Source: Psammoneis japonica (lineage: Eukaryota). From it: a DNA stretch of 64,000 nt. The stretch lies in assembly GCA_008632985.1 (NCBI GenBank), contig QPGO01000020.1, forward strand, positions 620,001 to 684,000, read 5' to 3'. A program made the translations under genes and the position numbers. Shown in pieces: positions 9,330 to 56,935 of this stretch. Position 1 is the first letter of the stretch. Each line of letters starts with the position of its first letter. The notes under the pieces are model-generated. The model was not told the origin of the DNA and searched no databases. It worked only from the letters and a program-made list of their open reading frames with translations.

Positions 9330-9440
9330 GGTGTGATACTGTCGTAAAGCGTGGCTTTCAACACACACTTAAACACCTGTTGTTTCACACAAGTATCACG
9401 TAAAGTCAAATACCGACTATCAGCCAGTCACGTGCGTCCC

Positions 9441-17714: not shown

Positions 17715-20120
17715 AAGAACATTGTTGCCCAGACTGGAGTGTTTCAGACAAGCCAAAAATGTTTTTTGTCTGGACAAGAATTTTCTTGCCCAAACAAGAG
17801 TGTCCCCCAGACCATGTTCTTGCCCAAAAAAGAACACTCTTGCTGGAATGTTCCAGGCAAGCCAAATGGAGATGGTTGGCAAGCAATGAAAATTCTTTGC
17901 AGAAATGAAAATTTGCAGTGCCGACCAGGCACAAACATCTGTCTGATGACAGTTTGTCATTGCAAGCTGAGACAATTGTGCTCTGCCAGAAATTTCAGCA
18001 GTGCATCAATGCAAAAAAGTTGCTCTCTTGCCGCTGCTTCAATGTGGTCTCTCCTTGTGCTGCAGAGTCATTGACTTTGACAACAAAGCTCCAGAGCCTC
18101 ATCACATGGCTCATGCATCAAACTCCAGCACCACTTCTGTTGCTGCTGAAGCTTCTCCTGTGGAGGGAAGGCTTGCACTTGCTCGACACCAAGAGCAAAA
18201 TCACATCAAGCAAGCTTGAGGCCACTGGCAAGAGTGACACAAGCAAGGAGGTCATGCCATCCCCAGAAGACAAATGCCAGAGGGCTTGTGAGTGTGCGGA
18301 CCATGGCAAGAAGAAAACTTGTCTGGAAGACTGGAAAAGGCCCTCTGAGATGACAGGTGGTGAGCATCTGCTGTGCAATGATCCAGACCAGCTAAAAATG
18401 TTCTGGGCCATTCTTGCCCCTGCTGGACAAGAGTGCCCCAGATGAGCAAAGAATGTTCTTGCCCAATCAAGAACATTCTTGCCCAAACAAGAATGTCCCA
18501 GACGGCCAAAAATGTTCTTGTCTGGACAAGAATGTTCTTGCCTGGGCAAGAGTTTTCCAGACCAGGACAAGAACATTCCTGCCCAGATGAGAATGTTGTT
18601 GCCCCCAGACTGGAGTGCTCCAGACAAGCCAAAAATGTTTTGGTCTGGACAAGAATTTTCTTGCCCAAACAAGAGTGTCCCAGACCAGCCAGGAACATGT
18701 TCTTGCCCAGACAAAAACATCCTCACCCAGACAAAAACACTCTTGCCCAGACAAGAATGTTGTTGCCCAGGATGGGATGTTCTGGGCAGCCCAAATGTGT
18801 TTTTGTTTGGATGCAAATTTTCTTGCCCAGACAAGAATGTCCCAGACCAGCCAAAAAAAATGTCTGGACAAAAGCGTTCTTGCCTGGACAAGGAGAGTGT
18901 TCCAGACCAGGACAAGAACATTGTTGCCCAGACAAGAATGTTGTTGCCCAAACTGGAGTGTTCCAGAAAAGCCAAAAATGTTTTTGTGTGGACAAGAGTG
19001 TTGTTGCCCAGACAAGAGCGTCCCAGAAAAGCCAAAACTGTTTTTGTGTGGACAAGAACACCCTTGCCCAGACAAGAATGCTCTTGCCCAGACAAGAGCA
19101 TCCTTGCCCAAGCTGGAATGTTCCAGGCTGGCCAAGTGTGTTTTTGTCTGGACACAAATTTTCTTGCCCAGACAAAAGAGCACTCTTGCCTGGACAAGAG
19201 CATTGTTGCCCAGACAGGAGTGCTCCAGACCAGCCAAAAATGTTCTGGGCCATTCTTGCCCACCAGACAAGATTGCCGGCCTGTTCCAGCTCCAGGTGCT
19301 CCGCGTGGGTTCGATTCCCATCATTTGGAATTTTTTTTTTTTTTGCAGGTGCAGCGCAAATAACTTTTTCAAAATCCGTTTTTTGCCAAATCGAAGGGTA
19401 AGTGTACACTTTACATTTATTTTTGGGTGTGCACTCACCTTTCGATTTTCAAAATGATCAAAATTGAAGGAGTTAATTGCGCCAAACTGCGCAGAAAATC
19501 GGCCTCTCTCGTGATGAAAAGCAGATCACCTGGAGCTGGAACAGGCCTGCCCCAGATCAGCAAAGATTGTTCTTGCCCAGGCCAGAATGTCCCAGACCAG
19601 CCAAAAATGTTCTTGTCTGGACAAAAATGTTCTTGCCTGGACAAGAGTGTTCCAGACCAAGACAAGAACATTCTTGCCCAGACAAGAATGCTGCTCCCCA
19701 GACTGGAGTGTTCCAGACAAGCGCCAAAGATGTTTTTGCCTGGAGACAAGAATTTTCTTGCCAAGACAAGATTGTCCCAGACTGGCCAGGAATGTTGGTG
19801 CCCAGACAAGAACATTCTTGCCCAGACAAGAGTGCTGTTGTCCAGGCTGGAATGTTCCAAGCAAGCCAGCTGCATTTTGTCTTGACTCGAATGTTTTTGC
19901 CCAGACAAGAATGCTCTTGCCTGGACAAGAGCATTGTTGCCCCTGCAAGAATGTTCCAAACCAGCCAAAAATGTTCTGGGCTGTTCTTGCCCACCATGCA
20001 AGAGTGCCCCAGAACAGCAAAGAATGTTCTTGCCCAGACAAGAGTGTCCCAGAACAGCCAAAAATGTTCTTGCCTGGACAAGAGTGTTCCAGGCCAGGGC
20101 AAGAACATTCTTGCCCAGAA
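17715..20120. repeat. Degenerate tandem satellite of ~19-22-bp quasi-palindromic units (TCTTGCC[CA/TG]GACAAGA..) with higher-order blocks, interrupted at ~17870-18380 and by a MITE
   Basis: Dozens of copies of cttgcccagacaagaatg / cttgcctggacaagag / cttgtctggacaagaa and ccagaccagccaaaaatgtt. Confidence 0.9.
19278..19547. mobile_element. MITE family A, copy 1 (270 bp; 21-bp TIR GGCCTGTTCCAGCTCCAGGTG; TSD TGCC)
   Basis: Perfect TIRs, 4-bp direct repeat at 19274-19277 and 19548-19551, near-identical copy at 41604-41864. Confidence 0.9.
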
Positions 20121-23100
20121 AAAAGAGCCTGCTGAGGCTGCCACTGCAACAGCAAAAATGCAGCAAATGCTGTCCCCGTGTGATCTCAAAGTCTCAAGAA
20201 CTCCTGGTGGCTGTTGTGTCCCACATGGAAGCCTGTGCAGCCAAGCCAGCTCACAGGTGATGCACAAAATGACATTCCCTTTTGAACACTGTTCATCAAA
20301 AATGCTCACATGTTCTGGCTTTTGTCTTTGATTCAAGCAGGGACATTTGAACATTTTTTTCATGGGGGCTCAAGTCTTCATGGAATGTGCGCCACAATTT
20401 TTTTTCTGCAAAAACAATGCTGACTGCACGTCATTGCTTGCTCATGATGTTGCAGAGAATTTTGTGCAAGCAGACTGCTGCTGCCAAGTGCACGCAGAAG
20501 CAAATGTGTCATTTCACCTGCAAACAGTGACAGTGTGCACGTCTTCAAAAATTTTGGTGAAAATCATCCATTGTGTTGCAACTCATTTGTCACAATGAAG
20601 GGACATTGATTGCACAAAAACAACGATGTTGCAACACTGATGTGAGTCTTGTCACAGGGTTGCAAAACAACAAAGTTTGGACAAATTTGTGCTTTTGGCA
20701 GCAAAAACTCATTCACATGTCAGAGACCATGTGAAGGCTGACAGCATCTGTTTTGGGGATGAGGAGGAGCCTCCACAGCAGCCAGAGCTTTGTGCCAACA
20801 ACATCAGCAGCCAGCTGTGCAGCACCCACTGCTGAAGTGCAAGAGATGTGCAATGGCTCATTTGCTTCTGAGCCAAAAAATGAGGCAATCTGCTTTGCAG
20901 CAAACTGGCAAGACATGGTCTGCGAGATCTGAGCCTTTGGCTTTCAACTTTGACGAGCCCAACTTGAAAGGGGAAAATGGCAGTTGTCAGCCTGTTCCTC
21001 CAACCTGATGTCTGAGCTTCTGCAGCAAGCAGAGTGACGGACAACAATCACAAAGAGGCGGCAGAAGCCAGCACTTGCATGTTTCATTTTTACAACCACA
21101 CATGAAAGTTGCAAATGCGTTGTGCAATTTGCAGAATTCTGCAATGATGAAAACCTCGGGTGATGACAATGTCATTTGCAGTTTTCAGGAAAGGATGAAT
21201 CTGAGTGCATGCTGAATGATGTTGACTTCGCGCAAGCAAATTCACACGATTGGAATTCACAGCCCATTTGACAACCACACAACAGTGCATGTCTCAGCTC
21301 TCAGTGCAGATGCTGTCATGTCCAGCATGACAGGTTTTGGCGTTGTTTCAATGACAGAGCAGTGTCATCATGGCCTTGCTGTTTCATCCTTGGTGTGGCA
21401 TTGTTGCAGAGCAGAAGTGGTGGCAGTTCTGCAGCAAGCACAGATGCCTTCTCTGCCTTTGCCAACAGCTTTGAAGAAGAAGAAGAAGAAGAAGAACCAA
21501 ATGGAGCAATGTTTGGTCAAGGGGAAAAAGAAGAGGTGTCATGGCAAGCAAGTTTGGGTGATCTCTTGAGCACAAATGAAGAAATTCGTGACAGCACACA
21601 AGCTGCACTCCAAGATGGAAACACAGGCATTGCATTCTTGCTGCTGTGGTGCGCTGCAAGGTTTGGTGGGTCCAGCTTGCAAAGTGGCACAAGAGGGAGA
21701 GGGCTGTGAGATTCAGGAATGTGAAGGACAGGTGGCGACCTTGACAAACATGGCAAAGGTGGGTGAGCCTTGCTTGGCAGATGATTGGCAAGTGGAGCAG
21801 CCGCCTTCAATGTGCTTGCTGCCTGTCTGTTTGGAGCCAATGGCGAGGGCAAGAACATGGCCATGCTGACACTGGTTGCCACAACATCACTGGGTGAAAT
21901 GCAAGAAGATGCCAATGGCTTTTTATGAAAAGGGCGCTGTCAAGATTGTCGATGCACCCCCAGCCAGACTGGCTGCAGTGCAATTCGCGGGATTTGTCAC
22001 CAAGAGTGAAGAGTGCCATCAAAAAGATGCACTCCTTTCATGACTGGAGTTGAGTGGCATGGAGATTGACATCTCACATGAAGCTGTTGTGCCACATGTT
22101 GTGTTTCAGTGCAATTTGCCCTGTGCCATTCCAGCTTCAAATTGTTTGGCACAACAAAATTGCACTGCCCACACGAAGTGATGGAGATGAGTCTGCCAAC
22201 CTGAGAACAGAATGGGAAGCTGCAGATGGCAATGAAGATGCTGCCACTCCTGACATGGAGGCTGCAGGCCATGTGAAATTGTCCAGCAATGTGGATGTGC
22301 GGAGTGGACTGGGAAGACAAGCAATCCAATTTGTCAGCTCCTTTGGGCTTTGGGACAGCTGAAGAATTGTTGATGTCAGCATCACAAATGGAGAGAGTGC
22401 GAGTGGCATCAGTCCAATCTAGAGCCATCCATCCCCTGCCAGAGACAGATCAACATTTCCCATCATTGTGCAGATGTGCCATCCAATGGTCTTGATGAGA
22501 CTTGAGCATCTGTGAAGAAAGGATTCTGCTCTTGCAGCGTGCCCCCTGCCAAGCTGCTGTGCTGCTCCTTTTGCCCCCTGAAGCTCCTTGTCAATGACAG
22601 ATTGAGCAAGTGACACCTGGAAACATCATCACTTCCATCATTGTCCCCCATGACTTTCTTGACCAACTCCATGGAACTTGACAGACAGGCAGTTGAGAAG
22701 AGCAGCTTTCAATCTTTGCCATTGCAAGACTTTGAACCCACCTTCAACCAATTGGTGCAACTGCAATTTAAGACACTGGATTCAATCATCTCAGTTGCAG
22801 CACAATCAACCTCAATCATTGCCATTGAAAGACTTTTGGCCCACCTTCAACCAATCAGTGCAACTGCTGCTGTTGAGAACACTGGCTTTTGTCAACTGAG
22901 TTGTGGCACAATCAACCTCCTGGGAATGAAAAAAAGCAGTTTTCAGTGCAGAGTCAATGACTTCCTTTGACTCGAGGCAGAGAAACTTCAAACAAAGCAA
23001 AAGCATCACAGCTCAGAACCTCCCACTCCCTTTTTCTGCCAAAACAATGGCCAAGTTGTGAAAACCAGCCTCCATGCACAGTGCTTCACAGTCAGTTGCT

Positions 23101-25301
23101 CCATTCTTTGTGCTGTGCATTCCATTGTTGTTTGCTTCCAGAAACAAGCCTCCCATCATTTGCCATGGTGGTGGTCAGGAGAACAATGGATGTGGTTGCA
23201 TCATGTGCAGGCGTGTCTTCCAACATCATGCTGTGTTTGCACTGTTTGGCCTCTTCGAGATGTTTTGTTGTTCAACAAATGAGACACAATTGACACACTC
23301 TTTTTTGACCACACAGATGAGACATAAAATGTGAGCACTTCATTGCCTCTTAGAGAACATTTTCATGCCCCACTTGCATTTCCGCGGAAGCATGACACAT
23401 GGACATTGATTGTGACACAGACCAAAGGAGCCGGTTTCCAGGTTGTTTTGCAAAAACTGGCAAACTGCGCCCACACCCTGCTTGTGCCACAAGGGCAGGA
23501 GTGGTGTTTTGGCCCATTGCTTGTGAAAAACTGTTTGACAGTGACAAGCTTTTTGCAAGTCTCTGCTGTCACACAGAGGTGACTTGTGAAGGTGGGCGGT
23601 GTTTTGGTTGACAAAAAATTGGATTTGTCTTGTTGATGCTGCACTCTTGCTTGCTCTTCATGTGCCATGTGAGTGGCAAAGCATTGGACAGATTGGATGG
23701 AGCAATCTTTGTTGCCATTGGCACTGAAACACATGGCAGCTGTGTTCCTCATGCTTTGTGCAGATGGGATGCATGGTGCATTGGGCACAGCATGAGCAGG
23801 CTCAGGAAAACTCTCATGTTTCTGGTGCCAGTTCTTGAAAAGCCATTTTGCTGGAGATGTGCCACTCTGCTTGACGGGGCCAGTGCTCATGTTTTCAGTG
23901 CAACTTGCAAGCTTGCAGCTTGCATCTTTCAAGCATTGAACAAAAAGATGGGAAAAAACCATGCTTTGCAGGGTGGACTGGCAGTGGGCGGCAAAAAGGA
24001 GCATCACATGTTGAGCAACAGGACGTTGGATCCAACATGCTGATGGCTGCACAATGATGGCTGTTGCAGCACTTTGACAACTCCCACTTGCAAACACAAC
24101 TGCAAGACCACCACGCAGGATGCTGCCATCTTGATGGGAGGCGCCATCATTTTGGAACATTGCTGGCCCCACTTCTGCTGTCCAGAGTGTGCCAAAGCTG
24201 CCTGAAGTGATTGTGAGCAAGAGAAGCTCATCCATGAAGAGACTTGCCAAGCTCTCTTGGTGGCACGGTGGCCATCATTGAGATGGGCAGCACCTCTGAG
24301 GTGGAAGTCAAGGAAAAGAACAAGAGCAATGTTGACACAGATGCATTGAATGTCACCCATGCAACTTCATCCTGGCTTTGGTGGAATGCTGTGTGGATGA
24401 TGCACATTTGTTGTGAATTCGACTGGGAAAGTCACTCCTTTGGAGACTGGCATTGTTGTCCTTTTTCTGGAAAACAACATTTGGAAACTGCCACATCAGT
24501 GCACTGCAATGGCAGATTGGAAAGGCAGCTCAGTCCCAGAAAGCTTTGTTTTCAATCTCTTGCACACCCCCCACTCCATTCTGGGCGCGTGATTGATGGG
24601 CAGTCTTTCAGCCTCTGTGACTCCTGTTTCTCACTGGAACGAAGAAGAAGAGGCAGCAAGCATGAGAACAAAACTGTTGCTGCCAAATGTGCAAGTGGCA
24701 TCAACACAACAACAGCCCTGCATTTTGGATTTGCAAACACGCTCCCCTTTTGGATGTCAGTCTGAGTTGATTTGTCAATTGATTGATTTTGGATTTGCAG
24801 GTGTGGATCGCTGATGCGCCACAAGATTGCTTCTGTGCTTCAATGTGCAGAGGCACTGGTGATCTCCATTCAACCAGTTCTGAGGTGCTGCTGGCACTCC
24901 CTGGTTGGCTGCAGCTGGCTGTTCCCCAAGACATTTGGGGCATCTGTCGCACATTTGGTTTGTCGTGTGTGGCAAGAAACTCGGGTTGTGAGCTTTTTCT
25001 CTTCCCACCTGGAGGTCAAGCTGTGGCCCACAAGCCTGCGCTCATCATCCTGATCTTGCTTCCCCACAGATCTGTGTGGCACTTCAATCTCCATCCATTG
25101 CAGATGACTCATGATTCCTTGGACTGATGCCAGACAGAGGCAGCCCAAACATGAACTCACAGTTCTGCCGCGCCGTCGTGGGGTCAAGAAAACACACACA
25201 ACACAAACCACGTCATTCATTCTTGTCTCCAAAACAACCCTGACAATCCTCTGTTTCAATGAATTGTGATCAGAGTGAGCAATGTTCCGATCAGCCATCA
25301 T

Positions 25302-25351
25302 GCTCAGCGACCACACTCAGCGACCACACTCAGCGACCACGCGCTCAGCGA
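25302..25351 (+). repeat. 13-bp minisatellite (CTCAGCGACCACA) x~4
   Basis: Directly visible tandem copies. Confidence 0.8.
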
Positions 25352-25698
25352 CATGCCAGGAATTTGTGGGTGTTCCACACGAGTTCTGAACCACCACGAC
25401 TTGTTTCACGATTGTTGGGAACAGGGTTTGTGAGTGCCATGAAGGTGTTGGCTAAAAGATTTGACGGAGGATGTGTGTTGAAAACGGCATCCACGTTCAT
25501 CACACACACAGTGTGGTGCCGTCGTCAACAGCAGCGTCGAGTCGTCGTCGTCCAACAGATGATTGATGCGCTTCCGCGCGCGGTCTCGATCATCAGGTCG
25601 GATAGCGGAGGGAAGTTTCGCAAGTTGAAGTTCGCATGCATGCCGGTATCTTTGATCTTTGGCGCGTTTGGAAATACAGTACGAAATGGGTACTGTAG

Positions 25699-25748
25699 CT
25701 ACAATGCCGTTCGTTCGTTCGTTCGAGAGAGAGAGAGAGAGAGAGAGT
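25699..25748 (+). repeat. (TTCG)n + (GA)n microsatellite
   Basis: Directly visible. Confidence 0.9.
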
Positions 25749-32105: not shown

Positions 32106-32204
32106 CGTAATCGTAAAGGCCGTTTGCAATATATTGGTGTATTTGCGATAATGCGCCTGAGAAGGATCCAATAACGAACATTTGCAAAGCTCAATCCCCA
32201 TCGG

Positions 32205-41062: not shown

Positions 41063-41603
41063 TTTGTTGACGATACCGTCTGTTTTCGAATCGGTTGAGA
41101 AACGCACGAAATTACGCAAAAGGACTTGCTCACGCGCTAGAGATCAGCCGTCGAATTTCTACTGTATCTCTTAGACAGTCTCCGTCCTATGGATGGCGTG
41201 TGTGTGATGAAAACTCCTCGGTCTCGTTGCGGCTGTGAGCTGGTGTTATGCCATCATCATTTGCAACCTGCAACGCAAGCAACAACTCGCGGACGAAACA
41301 ATAGAAGAGCAAGCAAAACTTCCCGCCACTAACGTCCGTCTTCGTACGTCGAGGCACATCGGACTGACCACACACCGCACTGAGTCACATCGTCGTCAAG
41401 CGTCAAGCCACGCCACAATCATCAGAGCCGCCGCCGCCGCTCATCTGGCCCGTGATCTGCGTGAGAATGGGTGACCCAAGTTGGAAGTGCTTTTTTGCAT
41501 GTGTGGAGAATGCTTGCGAACCCACCGTGTGTTCTTCCTGGTGATTTCTTTTGTTCTCTCTTAATGAGGACTGGCCACCTGCAAGCTGCGAGCTTGTGTT
41601 GCT

Positions 41604-41864
41604 GGCCTGTTCCAGCTCCAGGTGCTCCGCGAGGGTTCGATTCCCATCATTTGGAAATTTGTGCATTTGGCGCAATTGACTTTTTTCCAAATCCATTTTT
41701 TGCCAAATCGAAGGGTGAGTGTACACTTTACATGCATTTTCGGGTGTACGCTCACCTTTTGATTTTCGAAACGATCAAAATTGAAGGAGTCAATTGCGCC
41801 AAACTGCGCAGAAAATCGGCCTCTCACGTGATGAAAAGCAGATCACCTGGAGCTGGAACAGGCA
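41604..41864. mobile_element. MITE family A, copy 2 (261 bp; TSD TGCT)
   Basis: Same TIRs and interior as 19278-19547; TGCT at 41600-41603 and 41865-41868. Confidence 0.9.
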
Positions 41865-44800
41865 TGCTGTTGCCCTGGCTGAAAGACTGCTCTTCGCTGC
41901 TTTTTTGTCATCTTGACAAATTGTCACCTGAAGTCAGCCCGTGTCTGTTGCACATGGCATGCCAGAGCCATGGAGTCCAGATGACATCATCTGCAGCTGC
42001 CTGCTGTTGACACCTTTTTTTAAACCAAAAGCTCAAAGAGACGCAAGCATCTGAGAATGCCCCCCTGGCACCAAGCCCTCAGCCAACAGCACGACATTTT
42101 GCAAGTCATGTTGAAATCCCCTGTGCACACAGCTGTGTGGCTGCCAAGCTTGGGGAGCACAGCTGCCGACAATGTGGACAAAATGCGCACACTTCTTCAT
42201 GCTGCACCTCTCAACAGGCCTGCCCTTTTCATCCCAGCTTGTTCAGATGATGCACACTGCAATCTTTGAAACTCATCTCATCTCATGAGTGTCTGAAAAA
42301 CAGCCTTTTGTTGCTTGACTGTGCTTTTTCACTCAGCATTGTTTGCAAAAGAGTTGGGTGAATTGGGCCTGGGTGTTTTTGCCAAAACCAAGTGTTCTTG
42401 ACCAGGTGGTGGTGGTCTGCAACTTGAATCTTAGCCTCAAATTTTCATTTTGTGTTTGGGCCTTCAATGTCAGCATCCTCAAATCCACAGCTCCGTCTGT
42501 CCTTGTCAAACCTGCAGTGTTTTTTTGCTTGTGACTGCAACCCTCGCCAGCACCTGTGCACCACCCATCCTTGTCATGCTGCCAAAGGCTGCGTGGGTGG
42601 TCAAATGAAAAGAGACAGTGCAACAGGTGAGAGATGAAAAAAGCAAAATGTGTTTGCTTGCCTGTCTCAGTGAGCCCAGTCCATTTTTGCCATGAAAGAA
42701 TGTTGCCCCTGCTCCCAGCACTTGCTCAAGCACAAAATCAGATTGCACAGCAAAGTCAGAGACCCAAAAATCAATGGATTGTGACCCTGTTGTGGTGGTG
42801 CAAGACAGTGCCAGCAGCACAGGAGATTGGTGCGGAAGTGGCCAAGAGTGTGCGGCAGAGGTGAGAAAGTGGCCAGGCTGTGAGAACCATCTTCCAGAAA
42901 GCAAAGCAAGAGCTCTCAGCGGCAATGGGAGGAACAAGAGCAGAGTGCTGTGTTTGCAGATTTTCCTGTGTGGACAATGACCCAAATCTGAAAGCAATGT
43001 TTTCACACTTTTTTGACTGATGGAGGGATGGCTGGAAAGCTCTGCCATGGCACCATTGATTTGGAGAGAGCTGGTTTGGACAAGTGAAAACAAAGAGCAA
43101 AGTTTGTTCACACAAAACTCTTGGTGTGTGGCAAAACATTGGCAAACTGCACTGACCATGCTGACATTCTCCAGAACAACAAAATTTGGCAAACTGAGTG
43201 CTTCTGCCTTCCATCTTTTGCAGCACATGATTCACGCTGGCAGCTGACAGATGCCAGCAAATGCATTGTGAGTGATGCATGCATTGTGCACCCTCGTCAT
43301 TCTGGCACTTTTCTTTGGAGTTGAAAAATGTCAAAAATGCAAAGCAAAATGAAAAATCAGCAGCACAGTGTTTGTGACACCCACAGCTGGATGCAATGAA
43401 AACTGAATTTGGTGCTTTTTGTCATTGTGAGACAACTTCCTCCCCACCAGAGCAAGAGCAATTGCCACACAGCAAAAAGCTGCTCTTTCCAAACAGCAGC
43501 TTGTGGCCATGTTTTTGTGCCAGCCTGTGTGCCTCCCAAGAGTGCAAATGCTCTCAAACACTGTGGCACACAGGGAAGTGCAAGGTGGAGGCATGCAGGA
43601 GACAGCAAGAAAGAAGTCAGAGAAGGGGCTTGCAAGTGCAAAATCATCCTGATGCCAGACAACCTGCTTTGGAGGAGAGGGGTCAAAAGCTGCACACTTG
43701 CAAAAATGGTGGACTTAGAAATGGGTCAGATCATTTGGGGAAAGAAGGAGTTGTCTTGCAGGAAGGATTTGACAAAGCACTTGTGAAAAGATTGCTTGAG
43801 GAAACTCAAAGAGAGAGCACAGATGATGTCAAATGTTTGGAGGGAAAAGATGCTCTTGTGTGACACGTGAGCTTTGATTTGTTTTTCTCATGACATGTGC
43901 ATTTGAGCTCCTGGCCCCAAGTCTTGCTTGCAGTCTTGCAAACACACCACAGCCAGATTTGAAAAAGAGGAGCTTGCCAACCATGCACAACAAATGTGGG
44001 TTGTTGGGTCTGCAATGACAGCCCAAGGAAGTGCTCACTCTTTTTTAGCCAGCTGGCTGGCAGGGCTGCAAGTCACAAAGTCCAAATGTGCATGTTGCAC
44101 AAGCTGCTGTGCTGCTCAGCTTGCTGGGACAAGCCTGCATTGCAAGAAGGATTGTGCACTTTGCTGGCTGTTAAAGTCACAGCACCAAGTGAACAAAGAC
44201 CAAGCCCTGCAGGAGGACAAACTTGGAGTGAAGTCAGTGGCTTGTGGACAAAGCAGGCAGCTCACTTGCACACATGCATGAAGCAAGTGTGCAAAAACAC
44301 CAGCCCATGAGACCCAGCACACTCTGCAGCAGAGCAAGCAAGCTCAGAAACAGCCTTGCAGCTGCTTGTTGTTGGCAGCAACCCTCTCTTTGTAGCTGCC
44401 TTTGTGCTGCTTCTGTCGCACCACCTGGCACACAAGGCACAGAGCACAAAGCACAGCCACACTCTGATGCTTTTTGAGCAAGTCTGGCACAGAAGTTGGT
44501 GCTCAGTTGGTGTGTTGCCTGCTGTGCCAAGTGGAAATGTGCCCTGGACAGAAAACAGATGAAGTGTGTTTAACTGGACAACACACAAAAGAGCTCCAAG
44601 CAAAAAGAGCACCAACAAGCCACAGTGCATTTGGCCCTCATTGAAGAGGAGGAGCAAAAGAAATCAAACATGGGGGCCAGTGTGATGCAGATCCTGCAAG
44701 AGTGGTGGTCTGTGAAATTGGTGGTGGTGGCACATTGCATGAGCCAAAGATGGTGCTCTGATGGACATGCACAGCATGTGGCAGATCACGCCATCAGTGG

Positions 44801-45625
44801 TGAAATGACATCTTCCCTTTTTGTTGGGGAGTGCCCAGCACATGAAGTGTCGACACAACTGGCAGATGCCAGCCAGCAGCAGCAAATGTCCTGCAGCTGT
44901 GGTGCAGGCCTTGTGAAAGAGTGAAGGTGTGCACCATGGCACAAATTTGCTGCATGAGCCCAGCCCACACAGCTGCTCACAACTCTTGCACAGAGAAGCT
45001 CAAGCACACACTCATGCAACCAAGAATCATTTCACAGCAGAAAAGCACCCTGGCTGCCTTCTTCCTTTGCTGGGTGGAAACTTGTGGTGCTGGGTTGTGA
45101 CAGAGTTTGTTCTTTGTCACATGCTGCACAAAAGACACACCCATTTCTGCATGACACTGGATTTGGTTTGCACTGAAAAAGTTTTGGGTCATGAAAACTT
45201 TTGACATTTTTTGCATTTTTGAGTGTCTGTGCTGGAATGATGCAACCTCGTCCATTTCCAAAATTTCAAGTGGCAAGAAGAGGCACAACGGTGCTGCAAA
45301 AAGGCGGTTGCTTCTTTTTTACATTGAGGGCAAATGTGCACTGCCCAATGATTTTGCTGCAAAGCCCGCCACACACACAGAATTCTGTGGGCCCAATGTC
45401 GCAGGGCACCCCAGCCACATTTTGCTGAAATGCATGTTGGCAGCAGGCAGAGGTGTGTGCCAACTTAGAAGCAGCTTTGCAGCTGTTGTCAACCTGCTTT
45501 TGTTCATCTCCAACAAACTTGGCACATGAAGCATGATCCTTTGTCACAGAGGTTGAGAGCTCGGTGCCTGCGCCAGAAGCAGCACACAAAAACAACTCTC
45601 TTGCAGACAAAGAGGCAGCAGAGAG

Positions 45626-45629
<4 letters not shown>

Positions 45630-45666
<37 letters not shown>

Positions 45667-45672
45667 AGAGAG
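45630..45672 (+). repeat. (GA)n microsatellite
   Basis: Directly visible. Confidence 0.95.
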
Positions 45673-46376
45673 CTCTTGCTGTGCTGCCAATGGCAGGGGA
45701 GGAGGGAGACCATGGCAAAAACTGTTGGCTCTTTCCTTGTGTGTCAAGGCCAGGGCAGCTGCTGGGCACAAAAGAAAGCTGCTGGCAACTGAAGCTAACA
45801 CAAAAATGCCAGCAGCTCACTGGCTGCAACTCCATGAACTCAACTTCAAAAAAATGCACACTGAACATTGCATTGCCCGCCCTGTGTGCGTGGTGGTTTA
45901 GTCCATGTTGTTTGAGAGAGTCGTCCGTCGTCACACATCTCCACACCTCTTGCTCTGTGCGGGCGGCCGGAGGTGTTGCACAGAAAATGCTCCAGCATAT
46001 ATGAAATTTAAATTTTAATGAAAGTATTAAAGCTTGAATATCGTCAATATTTTGATATCAAATATCTCGTGTTCATGAATTTAAAGTTAACATTAATTTT
46101 TGGAATGATGGATCCGCATCGTCCATCGTTGTGGCGTTTGTCACAAAGACAGAAAATATACCGGTACACTATGTATAGTAAGCTTGCTCATGCTGATGCC
46201 GCCCGTGAAAGAGTGAATATACTGCGGCTTTGTTTTCCTTTTACCGGTACACCTTCTTGGCATTTTCTCCTCATCATTATCTAGAACCCAACGCCACACC
46301 GAATCATCACACCGGTGCAAGCATGTCAGAGTTTCATCATAGATGGTATTTATGTTCTAGAGTATAATCATTCAAA

Positions 46377-47606: not shown

Positions 47607-48079
47607 GCTAATAGTGCAGTTCAAACTTTTAGACGAGAAGCTATTTTGTTTCTCAGAGTGCGTCCCAACCATGATTTTGAGGTTTAGTTGTCTCTTTATG
47701 CAGTACCAGTAGCCTACCAGGTAGATTCCCGGAAGTACAACAATTGTTGCAGTCACCTTCACAAAACTAGTATCTGGACTAACGCGGCCATGGTAGCCTG
47801 GCAAATTCGAATGTTGAATCTCAAAGATCTGATTTCTTGCAGCTAGGGCCCTAGAAGTACCAAAGTTGTATAGTGTTTCCATTACATTGACACCGACAAG
47901 AAGAACTCGTGCCGTTGACAGCCTGGGGGATATACGTTTGTGGCAGCTTCTAATCAGCAGAGAAAACGAAAGATTCATTGTAATAGAAAACTAGGCAAAT
48001 TGCAGCTATGAAACACGTAGTATGTAGATCTTTGTCCGGGCATCACGTCATCGAAAGAGTTGAGCGGGTAGTTACGCAC

Positions 48080-48781
48080 TTAGTGGAGCGAGAACGTCAT
48101 GATGACGGCCCAACCAACAGCAGCAAACCAAACATTCCTAGAATGAGTGCTTCCGGCACTGTCTTCAGGCAACATGAGCTCATCACACGTCGTGGCTCCT
48201 GCTGCGCCCACCTTGGTCACGTTCATCAAGGGAGGAGTGCTGTTGTCGCCATCGACCATTTTCCCAACCACCACGGCACGCAAACCCTTGTCCGTATCAC
48301 CGACGCACCCGGCGCAGCCCGAACCAACCTCGAGACCGAGATTGATGATCATAGTATTTCCAGCCTGATCCAATTTGGCAACACGAGTGTAGTTCCCACC
48401 TTCTGTCTCGGGGTCGCCAAGAACTTCGTAACCGGACGCACGGCAATAGGGTGGATTCAGCATGCCTACAGTATGACGTGTGTTTAGGGCGGTGCCACAA
48501 AACAACGCATGAGAATTCGTTAGAAAAGAATGAAAATAATGAAAAGGGTAGTCTCCTCCATTGCACTTACAAATAAAGCTGTGCGTTTCCGGATTCTTGA
48601 GAGGAACGGCTTCTGCATCATCTTCGAAAAAGCCTTGTTCGATGCAGTAGGTATCAAGAACGTAGCCTTCAAAGCAGACTTCGCCTCCGTCAAGCTGACG
48701 AGCATGAACAGTAGGCACCACGACAGAACTGCCAACAATGGCAAGATTAGCAACAACGAAGAGAGAGCGAAAGAGCATCAT
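48080..48781 (-). CDS. Secreted, possibly GPI-anchored Cys-containing protein; in-frame 105-bp intron at 48570-48466
   Basis: Signal peptide; VCFEGYVLDTYCI..NPETHS..C..SGYEVL..LDQAGN; hydrophobic C-terminal tail; GTAAGT..TAG intron. Confidence 0.7.
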   Translation of the reverse strand: MMLFRSLFVVANLAIVGSSVVVPTVHARQLDGGEVCFEGYVLDTYCIEQGFFEDDAEAVPLKNPETHSFICKCNGGDYPFHYFHSFLTNSHALFCGTALNTRHTVGMLNPPYCRASGYEVLGDPETEGGNYTRVAKLDQAGNTMIINLGLEVGSGCAGCVGDTDKGLRAVVVGKMVDGDNSTPPLMNVTKVGAAGATTCDELMLPEDSAGSTHSRNVWFAAVGWAVIMTFSLH

Positions 48782-49453
48782 GGTGGTAAGGATATGGTGT
48801 GCAGATGGTGTGTTGAAGGCATGCGTCAGTGTGTGTTGCGGCAACCGCCTTGTGTATCTCGCAGCGTCAGTTCTGCGGTATCCTGTTGTCCATCATCAAG
48901 AGGCGTTTCATTGCAGGGCTGTGGGTAATCGACGCTACGAATAAGCCAGAGAACAACCGTGTCAACATCACCGTTGTATGTCCATTGTCCATAAAGTGCG
49001 AAAAAATGCTCAAGCACTTTTCTTTGCCGTTTTCGCTTTTGCCTGTCGTGTGCACATGGCTGGATGGACGTACAGTAGAGTGTTCTTACCGACCCGTAGG
49101 GGACCCTTTTTTCCGGGTCTCTTTTTGTATGACGTCATCGTGCGAATATAATAGCGCCACCTGACGTCACCGCACCTGTAAGTCGCCATGAGAACCCGTA
49201 GAAAACGCCATGTCTTACAGCTACAGGGGGGAAACATAACCTGCTGTATCTGTAAGCGGAATGATTTCCGCTCGTACAAATTCTACGTGATTTCCCCGTG
49301 CACCGTCGCTTGCGGGTCGAATCAGAACTCCGAAGAAATGATGTGTGAGAAGCAAATCCCGTGACACCTCTCTCGCGACAAAAAACACACATCAACGCAT
49401 TCTCACGATGCTCTAGTCATAACAAGTCATAGCATCCATGCAACACATCTGTC

Positions 49454-50512
49454 ATGCCTGGTGGACAGCCACAGAGTCACAAGTTGTCATGGGCATTGAA
49501 AGAGTTGAAAAAGAAGGAGAGATCTGGTGGCTCCGGTGGCGCTGACGGGGAAAAAAATGCGAGCGGTGCTGGTGGCATTTCTGCGCTCGATGTTGACAGG
49601 CCAGCCCCGCATTTGACCATGGATGGAAAAGAATCAACTCTTGTGGAAATGACAAATCTCCCAATCGATCTTACGGAGGATGAAAAAGTTGACATCATCA
49701 ACAAGGAGAAGGGAGTCACGAAAAAGCCGAAGCTTCCAAACTTGCTGGCTCCTGAGAACGAGGCCTTGTTGCGTGATCTGCTGCAAATCACACAAGCAGC
49801 AAAGGCAAATTGGCATGTCAAGCACATGTCCAAAAATGCAACCACATCTTCAATCTGGCAGCCAATCATGGACGAGTTCTGTGACCCACCTGACGGCCCT
49901 GCACGTGGCTGCGCCAAGCCAGATGGTGAGCATGCGGCGCGCACCTTCAAAGAAAAGTGCTGGAGTGTCATGAAATCATTGGCGAATTTTGCCAAACAGA
50001 AGAAGGAAGAGGATTGCTCCCCGTGTGAGGTGTCTGCATTGTTCATGTGGAACGAGCAGCAGGAACTGGTCAACAAAGACAAAGAGACCAAGTCGGAAGC
50101 AATGGCCTTGCAGAAGGAGAGGGCAGCTGCAAATGCTTCATGTGAAGCAAAACTAAAGCTTGAGCCCCCACCTCCATTCACAAAGAAGCGCCCAGTCCCA
50201 AGTGCAGCTGTCAATCCATCTGAGAGGCCTGATGGAAAAGTGCCGGGGGAGCCGAGGTCAAAGGACCGTGTGCTGGATTTGGAAAAAACTCAAGACAAGG
50301 CAGACGAAGTCTTGAGTGGCATTAAAGCTTTTTTGCCATCCAAGGAAGAGATTGGAGAACTCAACAAGCGCAAGAAGAGGAAGCTTCAGCTTGATGCAAT
50401 GGCGTCTGTGGCAACAATGATCACGCAGGGCAGGGATGCGGGTCTCGACGTTTCAAGGTTTGAAAAGCATTTCAAGCACCTGCAAGACGAGTTCTTCGAA
50501 GACCAAGCTTGA
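49454..50512 (+). CDS. Harbinger accessory ORF (putative Myb/SANT-like DNA-binding partner), Tyr-free, probably inactivated
   Basis: 352-aa ORF inside the TIRs, convergent with the transposase; 0 Tyr. Myb/SANT identity is inferred from position only. Confidence 0.6.
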   Translation: MPGGQPQSHKLSWALKELKKKERSGGSGGADGEKNASGAGGISALDVDRPAPHLTMDGKESTLVEMTNLPIDLTEDEKVDIINKEKGVTKKPKLPNLLAPENEALLRDLLQITQAAKANWHVKHMSKNATTSSIWQPIMDEFCDPPDGPARGCAKPDGEHAARTFKEKCWSVMKSLANFAKQKKEEDCSPCEVSALFMWNEQQELVNKDKETKSEAMALQKERAAANASCEAKLKLEPPPPFTKKRPVPSAAVNPSERPDGKVPGEPRSKDRVLDLEKTQDKADEVLSGIKAFLPSKEEIGELNKRKKRKLQLDAMASVATMITQGRDAGLDVSRFEKHFKHLQDEFFEDQA

Positions 50513-50741
50513 AAGAGATGAGGCTTTGCTTGGCACAAATTAGGACACATGTTGCATGTCGCCACAACAACTTCAGAGCCACACAGAAAAAAATCTGTGG
50601 CCTCTCACAGTGCATGCTGAGCATGACGACCCCGCAAAGTTGCGCGCCAAATTCCCAGTGCGTTAAAATGAGCTGGGCGTTGCTCCAGAAGCAATGGGAA
50701 TTTTGCAACAACAAACAGTGTCAACGTCATCTAAAGAACGA

Positions 50742-51712
50742 GAGCTTTCTAAATGGTGTCTTTTTTATTTCCATGCCCCTGTCAGATCCGAATCGGCGTC
50801 GAGATGTCCAGACGACCCCGCAGTTGCGCGCCAAAATCCTGGTGCGTTTTGCTTGAACAGGCGTTGCTTTAGAAGTGCTTAAATTGTGGGACAATCAATG
50901 GCAGCAACATTGTCACAGAGTGAGAGCTTTGTGTCTTTTTTATTTCTACACCCCCATCAGATCCGAATCGGCGTCGAGATGTCCAGACGACCCTGCAGTT
51001 TCGCGCCAAAATCCTGGCACGTTTTTTTTTTTGCTTGAACACGCATTGCTTTAAAAGCACCCAGAATTGTGGGACAATCAACGGCAGTGACATCATTTGC
51101 AGAACAAGAGCTTTCTAATGGTGTCTTTTTTATTTCCACGCCCCTGTCATATCCAAATCGGCGTTGAGATGTCCAGACAACCCCGCAGTTGCGCGCCAAA
51201 ATCCTGGTGCATTTTGCTCAAATGGGCGTGGCTTTAAAAGCACTTGGAATTGTGGGACAATCAATGGCAGCAACATTGTCTGCAGAACAAGAGCTTTCTA
51301 ATGGTGTCTTTTTTATTTCTGTGCCCCTGTCAGATCCGAATCAGCGTTGAGATGTCCAGACGACCCCGCAGTTGCGCGCCAAAATCCTGGTGCGTTTTGC
51401 TTAAACAGGCACTGCTTTAGAAGTGCTTGGAATTATGGGACAATCAATGGCAGCAACATCTTCTACAGAACGAGAGCTTTCTAATGGTGTCTTTTTTATT
51501 TCTGTGCCCCTGTCAGATCCGAATCAGCATTGAGACATCCAGACGACCCCGCAGTTGCTGCCAAAATCCTGGTGCGTTTTGCTGAAATGGGCGTAGCTTT
51601 AGAAGCACTTGGAATTGTGGGACAATCAATGGCAGTGACATTTTCTACAGAACAAGAGCTTTCTAATGGTGTCTTTTTTATTTCCACACCCCAATCAGAT
51701 CCGAATCGGCGT
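50742..51712 (+). repeat. ~183-bp tandem array, ~5.3 copies, between the two Harbinger ORFs
   Basis: gagctttctaatggtgtcttttttatttc..cagatccgaatcggcgtcgagatgtccagacgaccccgcagttgcgcgccaaaatcctgg recurs at ~50742, 50925, 51108, 51291, 51474 and 51656. Confidence 0.95.
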
Positions 51713-51806
51713 CGTTCAGGAAATAGAAGCGCTGAGAGTTTCGCAACAATGTGTGACACAAAGACAAAAGAAGCTACATTCATGCTGAGTTTGCAACAAC
51801 ACAGAT

Positions 51807-54363
51807 CTAATGTAAATTTAAGCAGTTTTGAATTGATGGTGGATCGACACCAAATGTGCCGATCGCACCAATCTGGTTGTGGTTGAAGCACGTGTAACAA
51901 TTTGTGAGCAAGAAAGACACGCGAAGCTGCTCACAAGCATGCGGTGTTTCACAGCATGGCTTGAAAGGACAAAACGTCCTGCAAATTCGAAAGACATTGG
52001 ATGCAACACCATGGCTCCACTCTACCGTGATGCGCACTGCCTTGAGCTGATAATTTTCGAGCACCTGAATGGGCGTGAGTGGAGCTAGCCCGTTGTGGCC
52101 GGGGCGATGCGCATGAATGACGCATTGTTGTTGAGCAAATCCCCGGTCCGCATGCACAGCATGCACCATGCCATTTGGAAAGCAGCCTTGCTGAATGTCC
52201 AGCAAGTGTTGGTTCACGGCTGACAAGTGCTGCAAATCGGTGTCAGCTCTGGCAAACTCGAACAACACAAAGAGCAATGAGAGTGTGATGAGCAGCCACA
52301 TTTTACAGGAAATGCAAAGCACATCGGACTTGTTCCAGACTTAGGTGGCGCGCACATGCCCCTTTTCGCAGAAAAAATAATTTTTTAAAGCTTTATTTAA
52401 CACCGTACATATTTAATAAAATTGAATATATTAATGGCTTTTAAGTAAAATAAACAGAATAAACTCGAACAAACAAACAGCCAAACCGGCCATGGCTTTC
52501 AGTGACCATGACGGCCCACTTTTTTCAGCCTTATGGAAAATTGAATGTCATGACCAGGATCTCCGTATTTGATATAGTCTGTGTCATCAACAACAATAGT
52601 GAAAATGCTTGTTGAAGGCTGCAGCGCGGCACAATAATGCTAAATCTGTCAGCAACAACAATTGAGCCTCTATTCACTCACAATTTGCCTCTAAGGACCA
52701 TTTCTTTTCTATTACCATGTATATTTCCTCAATATATTCGACTGATTCAAGTGTATCAATCGTTTATGCCTTCTAAACCGTGAAAAATGGTCCGAAGTCG
52801 ACGCCATTGCGTGGGCTGAGCTACACTTCTTCTCACGTCGTCCTAAACTTATTAATCAACGGATGCTTTATTCGATCCGTTGAATGTAACTCGTATTCGC
52901 GTATATAAACAAAATATTAATTATGCTATGTTAAAGACTTAATTTATATATATTAATAATATTTTATATGTTTCTTCTTACATTAAGGCGTATATAAATC
53001 GCTCATCGGAAAATTCGAGCTCTCAACTTACGGTACAATTTAGCGACTAATGACTGAGTCCATCAACAGTTTCGAATACATGGGTACACGCACAAGACAA
53101 TTCTGTATGTACCCATAAAAACACATTTGTAAATTGTTATGTTTTTACTCTATCGAAAATGGTGCCGCAAGTGTGGACCGCGCGTTTCATGCAAAAAGGG
53201 TCATTTTTTTGCGCGTGAGTGCACCCAAGTCTGGAACAAGTCATCGGCAATGCACAACTGTGTGCTTGCCTGCGAGCTGAAGTGGGACCCCATGTGATGC
53301 TCAAGCCGTTTGGAAAAGTTGTTGCAAGCATCTTCATGCCGTGAATGTGCTTGCACCCCGTGCACACCGATCGCTGAATGTTGTCTGCGTCAGGGCGACG
53401 CGGTGCATCTGCCCAGTCCTCAACTGGCCCTGTCCCTGGAGCATTTGTTTCAAACATTGAACAATCCACAAAGCCAAAAATGTTGAATTCCCCTGGTGGA
53501 CAAACAAGACCGGGGACGTTGTGCACTTGAGCAGTGTCCGGGTCAGTCCAAGTAGCCCGTTGCTTCAGTTTTCGCTCCATTGCTCTTGCAAACAAGGGAA
53601 AGTCATCAATCCACCTTTCAAGACCTTGTTGCCCAAGTGTGGGAGCACATCTGTCATCAAGATGCATCAAAAACCACCGGCATCCATGCGACCACCGAGT
53701 CAAATCCCTGCCTCCAAAGCACTCATCCACCAACACGGCATTGTCGAGTCCAAGTGCCACCTTGGTCAAGGAAAACAAAAACAATTCCTCACCGGTGAAT
53801 TGGCAATGATGCCCATGAGCACATGGCACAAGAACCAAATCGGGCAGGTCAAACAAAACACACAATTGTCGCAACTGATCCACATTGAATCGTGTCATCC
53901 GCTCGGCGCAGTTGTCAGAGCATTCATCAATTCGTCGGTTATGAGGCAAGACAAAATCAGCAGCACGATGCTCTTCCTCGCATGTCATGTCGCCAATTGC
54001 TGCGTTGCAATCTGCCCAAATGTGAGCCACATGATGACATGCAAAAATGCCACCCAATGTGTGCGCAAGAGCAACGCCAAACGGATCGTCCACATTGCCA
54101 ACTTGTTCTGGATCCAACAAATGACCATTGTCCTGGTTGAAAACATCAATTCTGGACACAATTGAAAGCAGAGTGAGAGTTGCAGACCATTGAATAAGTG
54201 ATTGAACAGAACGCGTCCAGAACACCTCTGTTCTCCTTGGCGCTGACACTCCTCGAGCGTTGAGAGACCTGTCCCTCATGTTTCTGTTGGTGAGCCGCCG
54301 TGGCAATTTGCGGCGGTGTCCATGGTGAAACAGACGTGGTTGTCTTGGCATGATGTGCATCAA
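51807..54363 (-). pseudogene. Harbinger DDE transposase (DDE_Tnp_4-like); exons 54363-53270 and 52248-51807
   Basis: IFGFVDCS, QRSVCTGCKHIHGMK, FPNG, GPTSARR|AD, HADRGF, ENYQLKAVRITVEWSHG, LLTNCYTC. The exons join in frame; the donor reads GCAAGC. Confidence 0.9.
52327..53242. mobile_element. MITE family B (916 bp; TIR GACTTGTTCCAGACTT[A/G]GGTG; TSD ATCG), inserted in the transposase intron
   Basis: 21-bp TIRs with one mismatch; ATCG at 52323-52326 and 53243-53246; AT-rich interior. Confidence 0.9.
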
Positions 54364-54915
54364 GAGTGCAACAACAATGCGACTGCAAAAGTGTTTCTTT
54401 ACCTTGGTGGATGAGAACCCGCAACCCCATCGTCAAAGCATCAAAGCCGCACCCGCACAGGTTGAGCTGATCGGCTGCAGCACCGGGCAGGCGAATTGTG
54501 ATTGAGTCGAGTGGTGAAACACGAATGGATCAGAACCCGAGACCCATGACCCATGCGGGTCGGTAAGAACACTCTAGCACCGGGCGGGTGGTGCGGACGA
54601 AAATGAGGTTCGTCCATCTGTCCATTGAAGCTTGAAGATGTTCGAGCAATCGGTCATCGCGGTCGGTGCCTGGTGCTCGCGGTGCTTCAGTGCTCGGTGC
54701 GGTGCGGCATCATTGGACGCAGTGACGATGGTGCCCACGACTTGCAAAAGCAATGCTGATCCGAGACATTGCATGATTTTTTCTTGTGGATCTTGACCAA
54801 AATGTTGCAATGGCCATGGTTGTTGCACCCCAAAAGAAGCGTTTGGTGAGGCCTCAAAAAGACGCTTCATGCACGAACAGGTGACAGGTGGCTCTCCATT
54901 TTTTTAGCTCTCGGC

Positions 54916-56030
54916 ATGGCAAGTTGCGTTCTGCTGCATTTGTTGGTTCTCGGAGGATCTGTTTTTCTTTTTCGCAATGTCCTTTGGGATCATGAAAGCC
55001 TTCGTGGTGCCTTCAGACATCGCAAACACCACATCTCATGCCCCTGCGTTCAGCGTCACTTGGTGGAAATTTCCAGCTCCACCCATCTCGATTGGAAAAG
55101 CATCTCCACCATGTCAAGAATGAAAGCAAAGATGACGTGATTTTGAGTGAGAATCTGTTGCAAGTCAAAATGCCCTGTTTAGATCATGCCCGGCGCTTTC
55201 TCTTTTTTCGGATGCCTTGGATGCGCTCAAGCTGCAGCGAGGAAAGGATTTGTGTTTGCACACGCGCCAAATGTGGGTTTGCCGCTCAGCATCATGATTG
55301 GTGCCCGGGGCACATCAAAAGGCTGGCATTGTCAACAAGAACATGGATGCCAGAGATGACTTTGTCCATCCCATGTTGAAACAACATTTGGAGGAGGAAG
55401 ATGTCAATTCATCCAGAGCGTGCAAGAAACAACAGACAGCACAATGGCGGTGCATTGCACGGCATGTGTCAATCGATCTGGGCTCATGGGGTGGTGCAAT
55501 GTGTGATTCATGAAGAACAAGTTGTCTTGAGAAAATCCATCTGTTGTCAACAGTGCTGAGGAAATGTGATTTTGAGATCAAACCACAACTTTCAGTGGCA
55601 GCTGGCAGCACTGGCGGGCACGACATGAAGGGTTGCTCGGGCCAGCTCCAGGAGAGCTGCAGTGCATTGCAACAGAGCCACTGAAAAGCCATTCTTCCAA
55701 TGGGCAAAAAGAGACACATGTGGTGGATGCCCCCCTGTTTGCAGTTGCACAGAGTGTTGCACCCGTGTCGTCTGCAGCCTCTTGGCAGCCAAGGCTTCAA
55801 GTGCTGCTCCCATGTGGATTCGTCCACCAGGTCTGAGGTGCAAGTTGTTGCGGCACTGCCAATTGCTTTGGGATTTTCAACTCTGTGTTTCAAAGCCGTG
55901 TCATGTCAAATTGATGAATGATCATGGGTTTTTCTTCATTTGGGTTTTCCTGTCCAAAGCTCTGCCTCCTGCTGCAATCATCCACCTGAAGCTGCAGGAC
56001 CGTGCGTCAGCAATGAGAGACTGAGCCAGG
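54916..56030 (+). pseudogene. Hypermutated remnant of a probable host type II membrane gene (possibly sulfotransferase-like)
   Basis: MASCVLLHLLVLGGSVFLFRNVLW N-terminal TM-like segment and ICVCTRAKCG (resembles a PSB-type KCG motif); lies outside any TIR pair; no TA seen. Confidence 0.3.
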
Positions 56031-56380
56031 GCATTTGAAAGCGACATCAGTTGCATCAGAAACTCGCTTTGCCGAGGAACATTCTGTGTGAGGCAAAAGA
56101 GGGTGCGAGACATTGAGCAACATGCATGCATGTTCTTCTGGAGCAGCACTCGAGCTTCAGGTTTGGGCGGGGGCAGTGAATTGGAACTGCCACGACAAAA
56201 AGGTGTCTGGTTGTGGGGTGCATGATCTTTTTTCTGCTCGTGAGTCATTCAGAAATGCTTGAGGTTGCTCGCATCCCACATCAGGATGAGGACACTCTGG
56301 AGAGGAAAAGTGTTTGCAACGAGTGTGGTGTCTTTGTGAATGCTTTCAGATGCTTGCACTGGGGCCGGAGTCTCTTCTTG

Positions 56381-56935
56381 GACGTGTTCCAGCCGCACGT
56401 GAACCAAATCGTGCACAAAAACGACATTTGCGCGATTTTTGCGCGGTCCCTAACTTACGATCGAACTTTCACCACCAAAAGTATAGATTTATACAAATAT
56501 AAATGTTTTGCAACACTAACAAGACTCGTGTGAGTGTTGCAATATCATTGTTATTGTGCTATCTATGTTTTTCATTGCGTTAAAAGATTCGTAACACAAC
56601 GGATGATTTTCGGCGAAAATATTGCCGTTATTTGGCTGTTACCTAAATATATCTTTCTACGATGCTACTTGGTAGGTTTTCTACCTACAAAAAAATCTCA
56701 GTATAAATCTACTGACGTACAATCAGTATTGAGTCTACTGAGGAAGTTTATGATACATATCCCATGAGGATTTGAATACCCCTCAAAAAACTATTTAAAT
56801 GTTCATACTCTAGAAGCCTATAACAGTCAATCCGTCTAAGTATTTTTATTAAAATGCTATATACACTAAAATATACATAAATTATATTCAAAATCCGATT
56901 GTCGTTTTGTGCGTCACCTGGGACTGGAACACGTC
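56381..56935. mobile_element. MITE family C (555 bp; TIR GACGTGTTCCAG....A[C/G]GTGA; TSD CTTG)
   Basis: Inverted ends; CTTG at 56377-56380 and 56936-56939; AT-rich interior. Confidence 0.85.

Follow-up and report, generated by a model that had tools for sequence, protein, structure and literature searches.

Fungal repeat-induced point mutation (RIP) provides an analogy for hypermutation of the kind considered here. In the chlorarachniophyte Bigelowiella natans, integrated viral DNA undergoes hypermutation at TpA, which, in the portion of the preprint considered here, was seen in a subset of lines only, and domains of DDE endonucleases and reverse transcriptases were over-represented among the TpA-depleted genes (Mettrop et al., bioRxiv 10.64898/2026.01.13.699255). 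In this report, we describe four elements, designated A to D, which lie in or at TpA-erased tracts of a 64,000-nucleotide stretch of the diatom Psammoneis japonica (assembly GCA_008632985.1, contig QPGO01000020.1, positions 620,001 to 684,000; this whole stretch is the window, and position 1 is its first letter). The elements resemble MITEs, or miniature inverted-repeat transposable elements, in being short and non-coding, in having terminal inverted repeats (TIRs), a target-site duplication (TSD) of fixed length and a high copy number, and in carrying several interiors under one terminal motif. We conclude that A to D are probably young non-autonomous TIR transposons, which have kept their TpA dinucleotides (in the following TA) by post-dating the main mutation episodes and not by being protected. 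The four elements are listed below with the ratio of observed to expected TA (TA o/e) where it characterizes them.

19278..19547, plus strand: element A, a 270-bp hairpin MITE with the perfect 21-nt TIR GGCCTGTTCCAGCTCCAGGTG and the TSD TGCC at 19274-19277 and 19548-19551
41604..41864, plus strand: element B, the second copy of the A family, with the TSD TGCT at 41600-41603 and 41865-41868
52327..53242, plus strand: element C, a 916-bp non-coding TIR element with the TSD ATCG and a TA o/e of 0.85, located within a DDE_Tnp_4 pseudogene
56381..56935, plus strand: element D, a 555-bp non-coding TIR element with the TSD CTTG and a TA o/e of 0.95

A to D are real, non-coding, multi-copy TIR elements. 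Each has 21-nt inverted ends with the common pattern GRCNTGTTCCAG..GTG, bordered directly by a perfect 4-bp direct repeat, so that the four positions and TSDs (TGCC, TGCT, ATCG and CTTG for A to D, respectively) proposed in the initial annotation were all recovered; no target is common to the four TSDs. In B, the final base is an A where the inverted repeat predicts a C. A search of the window for TGTTCCAG-N6-GTG with at most one mismatch gave 11 matches compared to 1.99 expected, a number that was reached in none of 100 shuffled sequences, and the eight exact matches are the eight element ends. A further match with one mismatch at 59742-59758 was rejected as an additional end, as it has neither the GRC prefix nor a partner. 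When the boundary is moved inward to TGTTCC (TGT..ACA), the flanking tetramers are inverted instead of direct (GACT/AGTC and GACG/CGTC), which leaves 5'-GRC..GYC-3' as the termini and 4 bp as the length of the duplication. No open reading frame (ORF) in the interiors of C and D exceeds 77 amino acids. The features of MITEs or other non-autonomous TIR elements are thus present: TIRs and a TSD of fixed length in all four cases, no transposase gene, multiple loci and, for C, an empty site. At 916 bp, C exceeds the length limit of 800 bp that one source gives for MITEs (PMC5199201).

Mobility was assessed with contigs of a public sequencing run (X1), which holds 72% of the words sampled from a 9.9-kb stretch of the window and whose contigs were compared over positions 41000-60500; the end divergences and joints reported here are those among the matches listed. 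The flanking sequences of contigs become dissimilar precisely at 52327 (11 contigs, agreement 0.41) and 53242 (11 contigs, agreement 0.42), the two ends of C, and at 56381 (17 contigs, agreement 0.40), the left end of D, and hence at least three of the eight element ends show exact divergence. The summed contig depth of bins lying mostly on elements is 3,200-15,500, compared to 55-71 over single-copy DNA, and is highest for D; this depth is not a copy number. In addition, 52321 is joined to 53242 in one X1 contig, so that 920 bases are missing, the sum of C (916) and a single ATCG; the position of the joint is ambiguous by 6. This joint is the empty site of C, which may be paralogous rather than allelic, and among the matches listed it is the only empty-site joint for any of the four elements. 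The runs X2, with a small share, and X3, of which no contig matched, contributed nothing further here. Over the compared stretch, the X1 contigs differ from the window by 606 transitions and 142 transversions.

The elements are found in or at three tracts, which together account for about 38% of the window's length:

15068..25452, no strand assigned: tract 1, TA- and CG-erased, with 16 TA in 10.4 kb, 6 of which lie inside element A
41400..45950, no strand assigned: tract 2, TA- and CG-erased, with a contig depth of about 68, which is the single-copy level, and element B at its left border
49500..60122, no strand assigned: tract 3, in which TA is erased and CG depleted to a lesser degree; of its 188 TA, C and D contain 132 and the island 50664-51895 contains 32

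In the tracts, TA o/e is 0.01-0.21 and CG o/e 0.10-0.71, and CA/TG is in excess at 1.4-1.9, whereas TA o/e is 0.58-0.66 in the four remaining regions of the window. The TpA-specific A:T-to-G:C signature is common to these tracts and to B. natans (bioRxiv 10.64898/2026.01.13.699255), but the loss of CpG alongside TA in the tracts is a difference from that case, as are the host group and the viral nature of the inserts, and MITEs or nested young insertions go unmentioned in the portion of the preprint considered here. Among 100 tract ORFs of at least 100 amino acids, a single one scored above the curated Pfam cut-off (DDE_Tnp_4), four others had sub-threshold matches, and a permissive rerun on 28 tract ORFs gave sub-threshold noise only; none of these ORFs in tract 1, in tract 2 or in the right-hand portion of tract 3 has a match over the cut-off. 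The segment separating tracts 2 and 3 appears to consist of host genes, and two ORFs located there (46368-47606 and 48080-48892) were rejected as transposases, being of host type when judged by eye. The segment 42302-45556 of tract 2 is strongly erased for both TA and CG in spite of a contig depth of about 68, from which it follows that present-day repetition is not required for the signature.

The initial annotation had placed the elements exclusively inside the tracts and had described their interiors as the main TA-rich islands within them. Both statements hold in part. No element was found outside the tracts within the window, but B is located at the left edge of tract 2 and not inside it, since the 500 bp to its left have a TA o/e of 0.39 and a CG o/e of 1.08, compared to 0.03 and 0.20 for the 500 bp to its right. 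The interiors of C and D are indeed TA-rich islands, whereas A and B are themselves depleted (TA o/e 0.28 and 0.16, with 6 and 3 TA, respectively), and a further island that lies outside any element is present at 50664-51895. From the coordinates alone, the occurrence of four of four elements in or at tracts covering about 38% of the window corresponds to a p value of about 0.02.

Element C is nested in an older transposon:

49076..54576, minus strand: host of C, a transposon of about 5.5 kb that carries a decayed DDE_Tnp_4 transposase, has 27-nt TIRs of 93% complementarity and is apparently flanked by a TA duplication

The transposase was recognized by Pfam with an E value of 4e-7 and a score of 30.2 bits, compared to the cut-off of 24.8. 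C splits this hypermutated pseudogene, yet it stays unmutated inside: its AT-rich interior holds 71 TA versus 79 expected, while TA o/e in its two flanks is 0.16 and 0.04. D, which is likewise AT-rich, has 44 TA in its interior versus 45 expected and is surrounded by hypermutated DNA at single-copy contig depth; taken together, the flanks of C and D have TA o/e values of 0-0.16. The 3' end of C departs from this picture, as its last 91 bp are free of TA (in the last 80 bp, 0 versus 4.5 expected). The two TIR arms of C differ at a single site, which reads TTAGG in the 5' arm and TTGGG in the 3' arm, and two more sites in the 3' end have CA or TG where the homologous end of D has TA. The TA-free 3' end may be due to mutator activity that leaked in from the flank once C had arrived, or it may be the native sequence of the family. 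In a purine/pyrimidine-coded search of the window, no converted relative of C scored above the null (best score 81.4, compared to 83.4 for the reversed query).

For D, a converted relative that the initial annotation had overlooked is present in the window:

20246..20788 (approximately), minus strand: D', which lies inside tract 1 and is an old relative of D devoid of TA, aligned to positions 6-547 of D

D' and D are 74.5% identical over 153 bp in a blastn comparison (E value 8e-22), and their purine/pyrimidine-coded match scores 329 bits, compared to a maximum of 75.7 for the reversed-query null. In a transition-tolerant alignment of 581 columns, 342 are identical, 107 are transitions, 55 are transversions and 77 are gap columns. 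At the 45 aligned TA of D, the D' sequence reads TG in 18 cases, CA in 15 (33 of 45 for both) and TA in none, and 18 of the 22 aligned CG of D read CA or TG. Its outermost TIR bases are unrecognizable, and no TSD was identified at its ends. Thus, D' has lost all TA, and sequence of this clan is therefore not protected as such but is converted once it has been in a tract for long enough. A borderline purine/pyrimidine-coded match to positions 83-186 of D (83.4 bits versus the null maximum of 75.7) was also noted at 2188-2289, in DNA of normal TA content.

A and B are in an intermediate, partly converted stage. They are 88.5% identical (blastn) and represent one hairpin MITE of 260-270 bp; folded as DNA, A reaches -61.4 kcal/mol (z -7.66) and forms a near-complete hairpin. 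The two copies differ by 23 substitutions, 13 of which are transitions, and 11 of these 13 are of the type TA or CG versus TG/CA (five TA versus TG/CA and six CG versus TG/CA). Of the sites at which either copy has TA, five of seven differ between A and B. No converted relative of A/B scored above the reversed-query null in the purine/pyrimidine-coded search of the window, and Rfam gave for A only microRNA-hairpin models far under their gathering scores. Both copies carry GGTTCGATTCC (19302-19325 and 41628-41651), which we take to resemble a tRNA T-arm or box B motif; ARAGORN found no tRNA gene in the window. The surroundings of A are repetitive:

18449..20119, plus strand: host of A, a degenerate 20-bp/60-bp minisatellite in tract 1

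A is inserted within this minisatellite of 20-bp units. Units between 17739 and 20119 contain a GTGTTCCAGAC-like motif, with nine plus-strand matches at no more than one mismatch, that resembles the TIR core of the clan, and a ATGTTCTTGCCCAGAC-like unit in the same minisatellite resembles the TIR of the DDE_Tnp_4 element. These motifs may be due to chance or may represent old transposase-binding repeats.

The initial annotation had left two explanations side by side, namely late insertions into silenced chromatin and protected islands that might even nucleate the domain. An unmutated C within a mutated transposase gene, a D' without TA and the conversions that distinguish A from B (five of seven TA sites) argue for late insertion and against both protection and nucleation. 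According to the scheme that we favor, A to D would be cut-and-paste elements of three families (A/B, C and D), all mobilized in trans by one transposase, which would recognize the common terminal motif and make 4-bp staggered cuts. Their copies would have inserted into, or survived only in, blocks of defunct mobile DNA without genes, a location for which selection may be the cause, and these blocks would already have been rewritten by TpA-to-TpG/CpA (plus CpG) hypermutation before the insertions took place. The insertions would be later than the main mutation episodes and would hence have retained their TA, and copies residing longer in a tract would be converted as well. The elements are ordinary in themselves; their value is that of internal clocks for a TpA-erasing hypermutation, with C and D unmutated in mutated DNA, A and B partly converted and D' fully converted. 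These three stages provide an order of events, and they show that the mutator changes resident DNA as time passes and has access to this sequence family.

Several observations weigh against late insertion as the reason for the retained TA. Only four insertions from one window are involved. D' has diverged strongly, and neither its termini nor a TSD can be recognized; instead of an aged copy of D, it may represent an older sister family or captured sequence that the two have in common. The TA-free last 91 bp of C, together with the TTGGG/TTAGG difference between its arms, hint at a mutator that acted after insertion and spared the interior, which is not predicted by simple youth. The elements are multi-copy yet unmutated, which would be odd if the mutator recognized repeats as such; an episodic mutator would explain this, by analogy with the activity in only some lines of B. 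natans reported in the portion of the preprint considered here (bioRxiv 10.64898/2026.01.13.699255). Furthermore, X1 was probably sequenced from the same sample as the assembly and is hence not independent of it, and the empty-site joint of C has a depth of 90.6 compared to about 61-68 for single-copy DNA, with the host transposon itself being repeated, so that the empty site is possibly a paralogous one.

Among the other explanations, an integration bias would be compatible with late insertion: the transposase would be tethered to, or prefer, the chromatin or DNA of the hypermutated blocks. The presence of all four copies and of D' in or at the tracts points in this direction, as does the insertion of A into a minisatellite with nine motifs resembling the TIR core, although an exact 10-mer match is expected about 0.12 times by chance in 64 kb. 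However, tracts 2 and 3 are separated by what look like host genes, so that purifying selection predicts the same pattern, and survival only in gene-free DNA explains the four-of-four distribution equally well as targeting does; the p value of about 0.02 comes from a single window, B lies at a tract edge, and the four TSDs have no common target. We therefore regard such a bias as possible but rather unlikely. A still-active mutator that homology, small RNA or a length threshold directs to old repeats, and from which the elements escape apart from leakage over less than 100 bp at their edges, is unlikely. It would account for the TA-free 3' end of C, in which three sites read TG or CA where the 5' arm of C or the homologous end of D has TA, and for the untouched interiors of C and D despite their multi-copy state. 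However, D' is fully converted over about 540 bp, the conversions between A and B are interior (alignment columns 85-198) and not at the edges, and the TA-poor ends keep many CpG (10 versus 5.2 expected in the first 80 nt of D) and may be natively GC-rich putative binding regions.

Protection of the interiors by a bound protein or open chromatin, with the elements seeding the domain, is extremely improbable and largely refuted by the data. The sharp TA contrast at the element borders and the presence of at least one copy in every tract speak in its favor, but homologous sequence is converted in D' and partly so in A and B, and B lies at the edge and not in the center of its tract. Moreover, the perfect TSDs and the existence of a host-transposon copy without C demonstrate insertion into pre-existing sequence, and tract 3 is in part an identifiable older transposon. 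We consider it quite improbable, finally, that an as yet unclassified transposase lineage (PHIS-like with a 4-bp TSD, or a new superfamily) favors TpA-hypermutated heterochromatin while the mutator misses the elements; if true, the clan would be a specialized colonizer of the genome's own transposon graveyards.

The affiliation of the clan was assessed by comparison with superfamilies through published descriptions of their TSDs and termini, and the statements below refer to the passages of the cited sources that deal with these two features. Kolobok elements duplicate TTAA. None of the four TSDs is TTAA and the termini read GRC..GYC, and both Kolobok and piggyBac were therefore rejected, the latter having a TTAA duplication (PMC5199201) of 4 bp with 5'-CC..GG-3' termini (PMC10045372). 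The eukaryotic PHIS groups (PIF/Harbinger, ISL2EU, Spy, Pangu and Nuwa) have TSDs of 0, 2 or 3 bp and TIRs starting with G or A (PMC4482050), and a 4-bp TSD is mentioned, in the passage concerned, only for the wider PHIS group including prokaryotic relatives (PMC10045372). The TIRs of the clan also begin with G, but its 4-bp TSDs correspond neither to the 3-bp TWA duplication nor to 0 or 2 bp, and PIF/Harbinger was rejected. Tourist/PIF ends look like GGCC..TGTT. The terminus of D and the TIR of the DDE_Tnp_4 element of the window agree, as judged by eye, in 10 of 13 positions when one indel is allowed for, but the TSD of the latter is TA and not 4 bp long. For the CMC/CMCT group (EnSpm, Mirage, Chapaev and Transib), TSDs of 2-4 or 2-5 bp (PMC12730594, PMC4482050) and, in most cases, 5'-CA..TG-3' termini (PMC12730594) are given; the TSD length of the clan fits this group, Chapaev included, but its termini do not match the usual ones, and the group was rejected. 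The same holds for Ginger, which was rejected on account of its 5'-TG..CA-3' ends: Ginger1, Ginger2 and IS481EU have TSDs of 4 bp, 4-5 bp and about 4, 15 or 25 bp, respectively, and IS481EU is reported there from parabasalids only (PMC10045372); the 4-bp TSD is shared with the clan, whereas the TG..CA or TGT ends (PMC10045372, PMC10741241) are not. The exclusion of piggyBac, Harbinger and Ginger in the initial annotation thus agrees with the published definitions.

Sola elements are characterized by 4-bp TSDs and very variable termini (PMC10741241, PMC3627910), and A to D resemble Sola1, Sola2 and Sola3 in TSD length; in contrast to the AT-rich TSDs of Sola2 (AWWT, ATAT, AAAT; PMC3627910), those of the clan are not AT-rich, and no DDD transposase was seen in the window. 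AcademX elements, which are large and encode a transposase and a nuclease, have TSDs of 3-4 bp (PMC10045372), and the clan fits in this respect. Among the superfamilies compared by description, Sola (by TSD length) and AcademX are accordingly the only uncontradicted candidates. A 4-bp TSD that is not AT-rich combined with GRC termini matches no superfamily whose termini could be compared, and Sola by TSD length only. An autonomous partner was found neither in the window nor in metagenome or viral contigs. The exact 21-nt TIR of A/B occurs at four metagenome loci (GC content 0.49-0.65), in each case as a single unpaired match in unrelated sequence, and these matches are thus attributed to chance. 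In viral contigs, exact TIRs of A, C and D were found in 0, 0 and 1 (unpaired) stretches, respectively, and degenerate TIRs in at least 119 stretches, which among the matches listed are all single or on the same strand. Among the 123 loci listed, including the four from metagenomes, at least 10 have a loose inverted partner (up to 2 substitutions); the one inspected, L092, is not an element. Word searches of the literature on diatom MITEs, which cannot find sequence families, returned no description of this family. If the transposase were identified, the known range of DNA transposons in diatoms would grow modestly.

With respect to the interiors, the three families A/B, C and D were confirmed, but the initial view that they are unrelated does not hold entirely, as the 3' end of C and the 5' end of D are similar beyond the TIRs, with a local score of 14 compared to a mean of 7.05 (standard deviation 1.42, maximum 13) in 500 shuffles. 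This subterminal similarity would fit related parents and a common putative transposase-binding region. By eye, a CACAAAA(A)CGAC motif was seen at both ends of D (56396-56425 and 56893-56920), with an asymmetric spacing of 11 nt versus 2 nt to the CASGTG portion of the inverted end, and a similar motif was seen at the 3' end of C.

Some further observations concern the host transposon of C. It is of the PHIS type with a TA duplication and in this respect resembles the 'PHISTA' lineage, for which PHIS elements with a TA duplication have been described from rust fungi in the passage considered (PMC12730594). The border of the TA-erased zone falls inside the transposon (49076-54576), the left approximately 400 bp of which keep normal TA. 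The partly TA-retaining island 50664-51895 of tract 3, with its 32 TA, also lies within it, and the contigs at this island show joints that go back to earlier positions and a loose end at 50676, which indicates that the copies are structurally different around the island. At 49814-49815 and at other sites in 49791-50396, the window has CA, whereas TG is found in contigs of X1 and X2; TG versus CA at one dinucleotide would be the mark of an ancestral TA that was converted independently in two host-transposon copies.

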